A stretch of 13,810 bases of DNA from a virus. Lineage: Duplodnaviria > Heunggongvirae > Uroviricota > Caudoviricetes. The DNA lies in the IMG/VR virus record IMGVR_UViG_2695420521_000003. One strand, given 5' to 3'. Every line of letters starts with the position of its first letter. Within the stretch, counting starts at the first letter, position 1. A program made the position numbers. This document shows, in pieces, positions 6,001 to 9,000 of the stretch.

Positions 6001-9000
6001 CAACAATATTAGGCGACGCCTAATATTGTTGTCAATAGGCTATGCCTAACAACCAAGAGGTAGGGATTGCCTAATGCAATGCACATAGGAGACTATTAAG
6101 CAATGCTTAGTGGTAAAGACTTAGGCCGAGCGATAGAGCAGGCCATTAATAAAAAAATTGCATCAGGAGCCGTCAAATCAAAGGCGGAGATCGCACGCCA
6201 TTTCAAAGTCCAACCACCATCAATCCATGACTGGATTAAGAAAGGTTCGATAAGTAAAGATAAACTTCCAGAACTATGGCGTTTCTTTTCTGATGTGGTT
6301 GGTCCAGAGCATTGGGGGCTTAACGAATACCCCATACCAACCCCTTCCTGCTCAGATTCAAAAAGAGAACTTTTAGACATAAACAGCCTTTATCAAGCCG
6401 CTTCTGATGAAAAAAGAGCAATTGTAGCCTTCCTCTTATCTGGAAATGCTGCGGAGCCTGGTTGGGTTGATTATGACGTTCGCGCCTACATTACTGCAAT
6501 GGAAATGAAGGTAAGTAACTATCTGAAAAATCAAGAATCAGAACGGAAAAGCCAGAACATCACCAAAACGGGAACTTAAACTTATATGGCCCGACGGGAA
6601 GCACCTAGATCCCGTTATTTAGCTCCCATTACCTCTTCCACATACCATCGCCTATTAGGTTGTGCGCAAAAGTATTAGGCATAGCCTATTGACAAGTAAT
6701 TAGGCATTACCTATAGTTTTCTCATACCAACCCACCCCGCCCCACAGAATGCAGGGCAATACTTCGAGTTACCAGGCAGTGGCCAGGGGTTAAGTAGCCA
6801 GCCCGAGGCGTAAGAACATGACGGCAGGGTTCAACTTTAATAACTATGCAGCAGGTTTTTGTTCCGCTACCCCGGCGTTAAGGGGAAATGAGGTCAACAT
6901 GGATACTATCGATCTTGGCAACAACGAATCTCTGGTGTACGGCGTGTTTCCCAACCAGGACGGCACGTTCACCGCGATGACGTATACCAAAAGCAAAACG
7001 TTTAAAACCGAAAATGGTGCCCGTCGCTGGCTGGAAAGAAACTCAGGTGAGTGATATGGATTTCGACACAATCATGGAAAAGGCTTACGAAGAATACTTC
7101 GAAGGCCTTGCCGAAGGCGAAGAAGCTCTCAGCTTCAGTGAGTTTAAACAGGCGCTTTCCAGCTCGGCAAAATCTAACGGCTGATAAGCGAAGCAGCACC
7201 GCGAGGAATCAGTATGCAGAAACGAGAACCCGTCATCATCGCGCCAGGCTATACCGATGATGAAATTTACGAATGGATGTGCGGGAAGGTACGCGCCATT
7301 AATGACCTGAAGCAGGCTGCTGACTATAAAGAGCGCCTCTCTAAAGAACTGGCGTCAGCGGAGCAGGATATTACCACTCTTGCAAAAAGCGCGGCATTAA
7401 ACGTTTCACGAGTGATTGAAAACTACTGACTGATGAGGCTGATGATGGAATTTAAAGATTTACCAATGCCATTCCAGGAAATGGCAGCGAATATAGTTCG
7501 CTCCCAACTGGCGACTCTTGACCTGAGTACTGTAGAAAAGGAAACCATCGATACTATATCCGGTAACGTGCGTCGTGCCTTTATAGGTCTGTATGAAGAG
7601 AAGCGCCCATTCGGCGGACAGAATTCGCCTGAAAACAAGAATCAAGCAAATGATGAGAAGCTGAAACACATTATCGCCTTACTTTTGGAAGACGCAAAAC
7701 GTCTACAGCAACTGGAACCAAATGCAGGCACAGAGGCCCGCATTTGGATTGCCATGAAATCACTCAAATGTGAAAGCAGTGATTATTTCAAAACCACAAT
7801 TAAAACTACTCAGCTTTCGGAAGAACTACTGAATAAATTGCCACAATAATATATTTTCTTATAGAGTGGTTAAAAATATGGGTCAGCATTATAGCTGACC
7901 CGAATAACAGAGAATATTTTAAATATTAGCTCGTAACTTGTGATTGTTCTTTAATAAATTCATACAAGCGCACAAGTTCTTTCAACTCTTCAAAGCACAT
8001 AGCGGAATTTTCAATTTTTCCAGCTTTGATTAGTGCCAAAAGAGCCTGATGTGCACAAGCATATGGATCAGTTACAGGGCTAATAATATCAACTTGCATC
8101 TTATCCTCCATTGAGGTTCTGGGTTAAAGATGGAGACCAACACGCGGCAACGTGTGGTCGTGCGCCGGACACGGATAAGAATCCGGCACTGACAGTTTAC
8201 TGAAAGAATATATCCCTGCAAAGTCAGGGCATAACGCGAAAGCGCACGGCGAGGCTGTTAGTTCATAAATGGTCTGTCGTTAAATTTTCGTCGACCGTGC
8301 GCTTCCGGTTGTGGCAATCCGCGAAATGGCGCGGCGGTAAGTATGGCGGGGTTATTCCTTCCCCGTTGAGGACACCGGGTTGTCAGGTTGACCATACGCT
8401 TAAGTGATAACCCCGCTGCAACGCCCTCTGTTATCAATTTTCTGGTGACGTTTGGCGGTATCAGTTTTACTCCGTGACTGCTCTGCCGCCCTTTTTAAAG
8501 TGAATTTTGTGATGTGGTGAATGCGGCTGAGCGCACGCGGAACAGTTAAAACCGAAAACAGTGTTATGGGTGGATTCTCTGTATCCGGCGTTAATTGTTA
8601 ACTGGTTAACGTCACCTGGAGGCACCAGGCACCGCATCAACAAAGTTCATTTGTAAAAATGGAGATAATTATGATTGCTCATCACTTCGGAACTGATGAG
8701 ATTCCTCGTCAGTGCGTGACCCCCGGTGATTATGTTATTCATAAAGGAAGAACATATATTGCTTCGGTAAACAACATTAAAAAACAACGGCTCTATATTC
8801 GTGATTTTTCCACACAACACTGTATTAAGGAAACCATGATTAAAGTCTTCCTTGGTCGTGATGGTTTACCTGTAAAAGCAGAGTCATGGTGAGCAGTAAT
8901 AAAATAACTGCCACAATACGACATTCAGCTTAATGAATACATCAGATTTGATTCTTATATGCCAGCAATGGCAGGGATTTGTTCATCCTTAAATCTGTCA

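Follow-up and report, generated by a model that had tools for sequence, protein, structure and literature searches.

In the Rac prophage that Escherichia coli K-12 harbours, the 123-bp intergenic stretch separating racR from ydaS carries three GCCTAA/TTAGGC repeats; gel shifts and ChIP-qPCR have demonstrated RacR binding, and a GFP fusion showed that the ydaS promoter is repressed (Krishnamurthi et al. 2017, PMC5700373). DNase I footprints of RacR were later obtained, three racR promoters were mapped, and so was PydaS, the hexamers of which (-35 TTGACA, -10 TAATAT) were assigned by primer extension and by mutagenesis of the -10 (Wisniewska et al. 2022, PMC9638921). The same study gave ATTAGGC as the RacR monomer motif and (T/A)TAGGC-n3-GCCTA(T/A) as the form of operators O1-O3, with O3 placed over the ATG (PMC9638921). 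Both RacR autorepression and repression of PydaS are established experimentally in K-12 (PMC5700373, PMC9638921). A 2023 follow-up counted four inverted repeats, found by size-exclusion chromatography that RacR is an octamer, and called the RacR regulon, with its racR-proximal ydaFG operon, not characterised (PMC11014345). The fold of RacR has been published as well. Prophage CP-933P, with its PaaR2, YdaS and YdaT proteins, offers another point of reference: there, PL933P and its operators OL1-3 lie past the repressor operon, their regulation has been demonstrated, and the repressor is octameric (PMC8630535).

The left cluster of operators (that between racR and ydaS), the operator motif and the analogy with phage lambda are already known. 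The window that we describe here, meaning the whole stretch of 13,810 nucleotides that was analysed, rediscovers this published motif and switch. Its addition is the predictable right-hand half: a pair of operators past racR, with a TTGACA-N17-TATAGT promoter, for which we found no description in the searchable literature, although an earlier one is possible. The literature searched also yielded no binding, footprint, start-site or reporter work on this pair, nothing relevant by way of genome-wide RacR binding data (ChIP-exo, SELEX, DAP-seq), and no data on looping by RacR. A first-pass annotation of the window had read the region as a repressor gene bracketed by two operator clusters, each overlapping a near-consensus promoter; that description is correct in substance, with the small corrections given below.

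The window contains a lambdoid prophage, and its identity to E. coli prophages of the Rac type is ~94-99%. Segment 5600-7100 has up to 98.7% identity to E. coli chromosomal prophages annotated with racR, a YdaT family protein and DUF1391, and it is covered to at least 80% in 1,085 of 5,426 complete E. coli genomes. The repressor gene racR (6103-6579, + strand) encodes 158 aa and scores 244.1 bits against the NCBIfam RacR equivalog NF049929 (cut-off 200). Divergent from it is ydaS (5655-5978, - strand), which specifies a Cro-like regulator of 107 aa (Pfam YdaS_toxin, PF15943, 9.8e-30; P22_Cro, 1.5e-08) and is the first gene of the rightward-equivalent operon. Next comes a ydaT-like, CII-equivalent gene (5246-5671, - strand; Pfam YdaT_toxin, PF06254, 2.4e-09), for which the annotation in the E. 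coli locus of 98.7% identity is YdaT family protein. On the opposite side of racR, the first early-left gene (6899-7054, + strand) is ydfA/ydaF-like and encodes a DUF1391 protein (Pfam, 1.7e-28); this operon continues with DicF (RNA at 8440-8491, downstream of the right-hand promoter), dicB and, farther downstream, an 824-aa exonuclease, xis (a DUF4224 excisionase-like gene) and int, beyond which stands tRNA-Ser(CGA). Gene order and orientation are as in lambda: cro read from PR in one direction, the repressor from PRM in the other, then PL and the early-left genes.

By all of the sequence-level defining features that were tested, this is a Rac-type immunity region: we found the RacR equivalog, a divergent Cro-like ydaS followed by ydaT, (T/A)TAGGC-n3-GCCTA(T/A) repeats between racR and ydaS with one of them over the racR ATG, and a TTGACA/TAATAT PydaS overlapped by an operator. 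A Pfam search of the 158-aa RacR returned no family, Peptidase_S24 included. Since RacR has no S24 domain, its induction cannot be RecA-stimulated self-cleavage; it appears lambda-CI-like at the level of DNA but, judging from its domain content, is not a repressor of the CI/LexA type.

Operators and promoters around racR

Exact copies of TAGGC-N3-GCCTA (TAGGCNNNGCCTA) occur three times in the window, at 6010-6022, 6036-6048 and 6676-6688 (0.01 expected; 0 of 200 shuffles reached three). When one mismatch is allowed, 6061-6073 (TAGGGATTGCCTA) and 6701-6713 (TAGGCATTACCTA) join them, giving five sites against 0.26 expected, a number that none of the 200 shuffles equalled. All five fall inside 6010-6713, where they flank a single gene, racR; the motif search, which the first-pass annotation had itself proposed, thus confines sites of this quality in the window to the two clusters beside racR. 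Four copies of the motif had been claimed: those at 6010, 6036 and 6676 are indeed exact, but the one at 6701 carries a mismatch.

Only two sites had been noted upstream of racR. Both are present, but those at 6061 and 6097 were overlooked, and the left cluster has four members. The first (6010-6022, TAGGCGACGCCTA), which is kept in K-12, occupies the spacer and the -10 of PydaS, with its centre at about -17; the second (6036-6048, TAGGCTATGCCTA) adjoins the -35 of the same promoter, centred at about -43; the third (6061-6073) is in the racR promoter region; and the fourth (6097-6109, TAAGCAATGCTTA), a weak operator that is a perfect palindrome with two mismatches to the motif, lies across the racR ATG and is the equivalent of the published O3. 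The right cluster consists of two full operators: a distal one (6676-6688, TAGGCATAGCCTA) that directly adjoins the -35 of the predicted PL-like promoter, centred at about -42, and a proximal one (6701-6713) that extends through the spacer into the first two nucleotides of the -10, centred at about -17. The right pair had been described as overlapping both the -35 and the -10; this is accurate for the proximal site and the -10, but the distal site abuts the -35. A third right-hand element is only degenerate (GCCTATTAGGTT at 6650-6661). Adjacent operators in the window are 25-26 bp apart.

A promoter scan over 5800-7000 returned exactly two σ70-like sites, one per strand and both at operator pairs, which recovers the two near-consensus promoters of the first-pass annotation, although a count of two is not above chance (1.8 expected in shuffles). 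PydaS, the PR-like promoter (6006-6035, - strand), has its -35 TTGACA at 6035-6030, an 18-nt spacer and its -10 TAATAT at 6011-6006, with 10 of 12 consensus matches; the predicted PL-like promoter, TTGACA-N17-TATAGT (6689-6717, + strand), has 11 of 12 and faces the early-left genes. The two are mirror images of each other: one operator adjoins the -35, and a second, 6-7 nt beyond that hexamer, fills the spacer and reaches into the -10. From the end of the racR stop codon, at 6579, the first right-hand operator begins 96 bp on and the -35 begins 109 bp on, in keeping with the distance of about 100 bp that had been given for this interval; the 96-bp gap is empty, and no rexAB-like cargo separates racR from the right-hand promoter, as had also been observed.

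The repeat finder places a perfect palindrome of 33 bp (6000-6032), not 31 bp as first given, with its centre on the first operator; it is perfect in only a few relatives, in three different versions. The inverted copy present on the two sides of racR measures 21 bp (6029-6049 versus 6675-6695) instead of the 22 bp first given. We rejected this duplication as a separate feature: it is the module of operator plus TTGACA (-35) that the two sides share.

Beyond the PL-like promoter is an early-left leader of ~175 nt (6718-6898, + strand) with a C-rich start, which is unstructured and highly conserved with K-12. A structured put-like or nut-like RNA was considered for this leader and rejected (fold z = +1.07 versus shuffled sequences); an Rfam search gave no match even at E <= 5, and no boxA was found on its + strand. 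The single CGCTCTTTA in the window, at 7327, is on the wrong strand and compatible with chance. A C-rich, unstructured leader after 6718 could itself load Rho. Between racR and the right pair, a hairpin (ACGGGA/TCCCGT, then TATTTAG; 6594-6622, + strand) shows one compensatory pair among E. coli variants and might act as a weak terminator after racR.

The right-hand pair across relatives

The K-12 region is 87% identical by column to the window and has the same layout of sites, including the right-hand pair and its TTGACA-17-TATAGT promoter, which lie there between racR and ydaG. Among loci found with the protein as seed, the pair recurs with identical geometry in Escherichia, Mixta, a Pseudomonadota MAG, Proteus and two Achromobacter species; the other genera that keep it have a RacR of only 47-63% identity (Mixta 63%, Proteus 59%, the Pseudomonadota MAG 58%). 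The pair is also present in the isolated Klebsiella phage KpF5 and in Escherichia phage vB_EcoS-683R6. Two protein-seeded loci, from Klebsiella sp. R390 and a Nitrosomonas MAG, have no downstream pair within 2.5 kb, and in an Aeromonas relative the motif diverges.

The layout never varies: operator, TTGAC(A/T), 6 nt, operator, and a -10 that begins with the final TA of that operator. Around it, the 30 nt before and the 23 nt after are unrelated between genera. Mixta, Proteus, Achromobacter and KpF5 all retain the -35 and, in the -10, positions T1, A2 and T6, while the other bases vary. The distal operator is conserved in all relatives that have a downstream pair, and the proximal variant is identical in Mixta and other distant loci.

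Viral contigs were scanned with a DNA pattern that joins operator and TTGACA (TAGGCNNNGCCTATTGACA), which yielded 120 loci; 101 of these contigs encode a RacR-like protein, and about 8 of the remaining 19 end on the side where the repressor gene is expected. Bearing in mind that this set was chosen by the pattern itself, the independent evidence in it is the second operator and its position only: with up to one mismatch, it lies at +25 in all but two of the 29 representative layouts with a match downstream (27 of 29), and those two belong to the most divergent homologues, at 32% and 50% identity. The distance from the repressor stop to the right pair ranges from 62 to 1,399 bp in the viral layouts. 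Taken over all loci, the half-site is the longer AT-TAGGC, and 325 of 363 pairs of adjacent sites have a spacing of 24-26 bp. Neither the complete 38-kb KpF5 genome nor the entire Rac prophage of K-12 has sites with up to one mismatch outside the two clusters.

On the left, the E. coli type has four sites (-93, -67, -42, -6) and the other genera have three (-66, -41, -6). All of the distant relatives have TAGGAATTGCCTA at -41, homologous to the 6061 site, and they also have TAGGCAATGCTTA at -6, the counterpart of the 6097 site. Another variable is the C-terminus of the repressor: proteins of 341-366 aa in Achromobacter and several viral contigs combine the first 77 residues (78% identical) with a Peptidase_S24 C-terminus, and the alignment of the window's RacR with the S24-bearing Achromobacter relative covers residues 1-77 only. 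These S24-fused relatives have the same operators, YdaS-like partner and downstream pair. The slot between repressor gene and right cluster, empty in the window (96 bp), is filled in some relatives: in KpF5 by a 384-aa protein with an HSDR_N domain, in others by a BamE-like lipoprotein or small membrane proteins. A PADLOC scan of the cargo proteins of the relatives found no significant defence family. The two clusters are 614-640 bp apart in relatives without cargo and ~2 kb apart in those with it; helical phasing between clusters, checked by hand, is not kept over these distances and was discarded as a feature.

Control of the early-left genes

Published expression data from K-12 bear on the right-hand half. 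CRISPRi roadblocks with Cascade at +3 and +58 of racR lowered racR RNA 20- and 11-fold, respectively, and strongly derepressed ydaG, kilR, ydaE, racC, recE, recT, ralR, xisR and intR (bioRxiv 10.64898/2026.09.06.749655). Expression of C.Csp231I also lowered racR, and it raised ydaF and ydaG ~40-fold and kilR >70-fold (PMC6765115). Neither result can be put down to read-through from the racR promoters. We infer that a RacR-repressed promoter between racR and ydaG can explain both, a conclusion not drawn by the authors of those studies; the published RNA-seq fits such a promoter at the right-hand position.

Silencing of kilR has been credited to a Rho-dependent terminator on racR-promoter transcripts: a PRM-racR construct served to assay this terminator, 'trac', and Rho mutations are lethal to rac+ cells (PMC4150792). 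Taken with the leader after 6718, the C-rich and unstructured character of which fits a Rho loading site, these data could mean that the early-left genes are transcribed mainly by read-through from the racR promoters, limited by Rho, and that the right-hand sites play a minor part. We regard this as improbable, given that the roadblocks sent the downstream genes strongly up as they cut racR RNA 11-20 fold (bioRxiv 10.64898/2026.09.06.749655), that the C protein had the same pair of opposite effects on racR and on ydaF/ydaG (PMC6765115), and that Rho could equally act on a PL-like transcript; Rho termination and a RacR-repressed right promoter are compatible. It is a shade less probable again that the right pair is purely auxiliary, anchoring a loop held by the RacR octamer and strengthening repression of PydaS while controlling no working promoter. 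The octameric state reported for RacR (PMC11014345) would suit such a role, the promoter scan alone is not significant, and the literature searched maps no transcription start at the pair; against this, every relative keeps the -35 and, within the -10, T1, A2 and T6 in register with its operators, other bases being variable, and a block of racR transcription derepresses the genes downstream (bioRxiv 10.64898/2026.09.06.749655).

Least credible of all, and to our minds barely worth entertaining, is that the right pair derives from the left cluster by duplication or gene conversion and survives as a non-functional relic. The 21-bp perfect inverted copy common to both sides is what such an origin would leave, but operator core and -35 positions account for ~16-18 of its 21 bp, the K-12 spacer differs, and the pair is kept in genera in which RacR is 47-63% identical, among unrelated flanks and at a variable distance from the repressor gene.

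Our main reading, to which we give a probability of roughly 85%, is a Rac-type lambdoid immunity switch in which RacR operators control both PydaS and the PL-like promoter, the right half being predicted. Dimers of RacR would bind the 13-bp inverted repeats, (AT)TAGGC-N3-GCCTA(AT), and, from the spacer and the edge of the -35, would block RNA polymerase at both promoters. Leftward, PydaS would drive ydaS (cro-like) and ydaT; rightward, the promoter at 6689-6717 would drive DUF1391, DicF, dicB, exonuclease, xis and int. Autoregulation, as in K-12, would come from the 6061 and 6097 sites, which cover the racR promoters and, in the leaderless transcript, the +1/ATG. The right half of this scheme is supported by the conserved layout, by the restriction of sites to the clusters and by the published RNA-seq derepression, all of which lead us to expect that RacR occupies the right pair and that the promoter there is active once RacR is removed. 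The first-pass interpretation as an OR/OL-type switch gains support from the lambda-like gene order, from the left half, which experiments on the K-12 orthologue back, and from conservation of the right half.

The 25-26 bp spacing and the reported octamer suggest that RacR may bind cooperatively, possibly with a ~640-bp loop; that one octamer bridges the clusters, ~640 bp apart, and loops out racR is speculative. A broader proposal, which we hold tentatively and at somewhat short of even odds, is that the right pair and its promoter form an undescribed second half of the RacR regulon and the true promoter of the toxic early-left genes (kilR in K-12; DicF and dicB here), clamped by the octamer in a ~640-bp loop, and that the whole is a portable cassette of DNA-binding domain, operator and promoter, combined with either a RacR-type or an S24 C-terminus and with a variable cargo slot. 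The Rac kil gene was reportedly described by Conter et al. in 1996.

The right pair offers a concrete, testable candidate for a promoter/operator of the RacR regulon, which is described as uncharacterised at the racR-proximal genes (PMC11014345). A RacR-repressed right promoter would explain why kilR, recET and xis/int rise in K-12 when RacR falls, and it predicts the same rise for DicF and dicB in the prophage of the window; it would serve as an alternative or a complement to the silencing of kilR solely by Rho acting on racR-promoter read-through. The value of these observations is limited to Rac biology, and the general view of prophage switches is unchanged.

Comparison with known switches

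The locus has in common with K-12 Rac the RacR family, divergent ydaS and ydaT, the four left sites (-93, -67, -42, -6), both promoters and the right pair. It differs in its early-left genes, which are of the Qin type (DUF1391, DicF, dicB) here and ydaG-ydaF-sieB-kilR in K-12; in YdaS, of 107 aa here and 98 aa in K-12; in its location, at a tRNA-Ser gene instead of at ttcA; and in the 33-bp perfect palindrome around the first operator, which K-12 lacks.

As with the OR and OL of lambda, clusters stand on both sides of the repressor gene and each appears to overlap an outward-facing lytic promoter, within the same gene order and orientations. Adjacent operators are 23-24 bp apart in lambda and 25-26 bp apart here. 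Lambda has three operators per cluster; here the left cluster has four and the right cluster two. RacR is without a Peptidase_S24 domain, the repressor transcript is leaderless and has an operator over its start codon, and there are no rexAB-like genes. An octameric repressor, as reported for RacR (PMC11014345), is a further similarity to lambda. Another difference from lambda is that YdaS is reported not to repress racR (PMC9638921).

The DicA/DicC-dicBp system of Qin resembles this locus in its operon of DUF1391 (ydfA-like), DicF and dicB and in the promoter that closely follows a repressor gene whose product is short and non-cleavable. It differs in operator sequence and in the leader (~175 nt here versus the 166-bp dicA-ydfA gap in Qin), and BLASTP of RacR against DicA gave no alignment at E <= 100. 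CP-933P differs in its repressor and operator (consensus half-site GTTTAGTAA), and in having a toxin-antitoxin pair between repressor and PL where the window has nothing. It is nevertheless a Rac-like prophage with a PL/OL analogue downstream of the repressor, and the closest demonstrated precedent among YdaS/YdaT prophages.

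A dicBF operon joined to Rac-type immunity

The DicF RNA lies on the plus strand at window 8440-8491 (76.7 bits in Rfam). Like it, a DUF1391 gene (6899-7054) is 3' of the right-hand promoter, and the interval 8659-8892 is grouped with them. We therefore conclude that a Qin-type dicBF operon is joined here to Rac-type immunity. As read from this arrangement, DicF and dicB would be controlled in this prophage by RacR, not by DicA. The same early-left operon also contains an 824-residue protein annotated as an 'exonuclease' (9016-11490, plus strand), the C-terminus of which is a Rv2179c-like 3'-5' exoribonuclease domain (3.9e-66).

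The leader between the promoter and these genes (6718-6898, plus strand; about 175 nt) is strongly conserved relative to its counterpart in the E. coli K-12 Rac prophage. Its fold is no more stable than that of shuffled sequence, and a search of Rfam gave no match. Its beginning is C-rich (CCAACCCACCCCGCCCCAC), and the leader may be a Rho loading site. A perfect boxA, (C/T)GCTCTTTAACAA, is found 60-125 nt 3' of the downstream operator pair in the leaders of four relatives (L011, L084, L086 and L133), which suggests N/nut-type antitermination there; boxA is absent from the E. coli-type leader. In three of these four relatives, we confirmed that the repressor is fused to a Peptidase_S24 domain.

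The repressor gene and its downstream interval

Such fusions, in Achromobacter and some viral contigs, join the DNA-binding domain of RacR (residues 1-77, 78% identical) to the peptidase domain, yielding repressors of 341-366 residues (L011, 2501-3601; also L013, L058, L081, L084, L086, L104 and L137). The operator motif is unchanged at these loci, as are both operator clusters.

The interval between the repressor gene and the right-hand cluster is occupied in relatives by variable cargo (Klebsiella phage KpF5, L017, 3649-4803; also L081, L013, L137 and L121), for example a 384-residue HSDR_N-domain protein, a BamE-like lipoprotein, or small two-transmembrane proteins. None of these cargo proteins had a significant match among the PADLOC defence families.

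In the window, the segment 6594-6622 (plus strand), shortly 3' of the racR stop codon, contains a hairpin with the arms ACGGGA/TCCCGT and, after it, TATTTAG. Among E. coli variants the hairpin shows one compensatory pair change (GGGA/TCCC to GGAA/TTCC). It is possibly a weak intrinsic terminator, placed between racR and the next promoter. Farther along, about 20 bp 5' of the first right-hand operator, is GCCTATTAGGTT (6650-6661). This element is unchanged across all E. coli-type loci, and may represent either a degenerate third operator or two half-sites.

Probable prophage boundary and other features

A tRNA-Ser(CGA) gene (12830-12919, minus strand) adjoins the integrase and is the likely attachment site; the Peptidase_M90 gene past it (12974-13810, plus strand) is probably host DNA. 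Also encoded on the minus strand are the antitoxin RNA sok, part of a hok/sok module (778-927), and a Paa/AcfC-like adhesin (SBP_bac_11; 1119-1877).

Architecture of the left operator cluster

A perfect 33-bp palindrome (6000-6032) surrounds the first operator, and only a few relatives have a perfect version of it. The perfect palindromes comprise three sequence versions, ACAACAATAT, ACAATGATAT and ACAATAATAT, each with a matching arm; in most relatives, K-12 included, the palindrome is imperfect (4-7 of 12 flank positions). Its perfection could reflect either quasipalindrome correction or selection.

Relative to the racR ATG, the left-cluster operators lie at -93, -67, -42 and -6 in the window, and at -66, -41 and -6 in L007-L013. 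The E. coli-type cluster differs from that of other genera by one additional operator unit of about 26 bp, which places the ydaS promoter one unit farther from racR.
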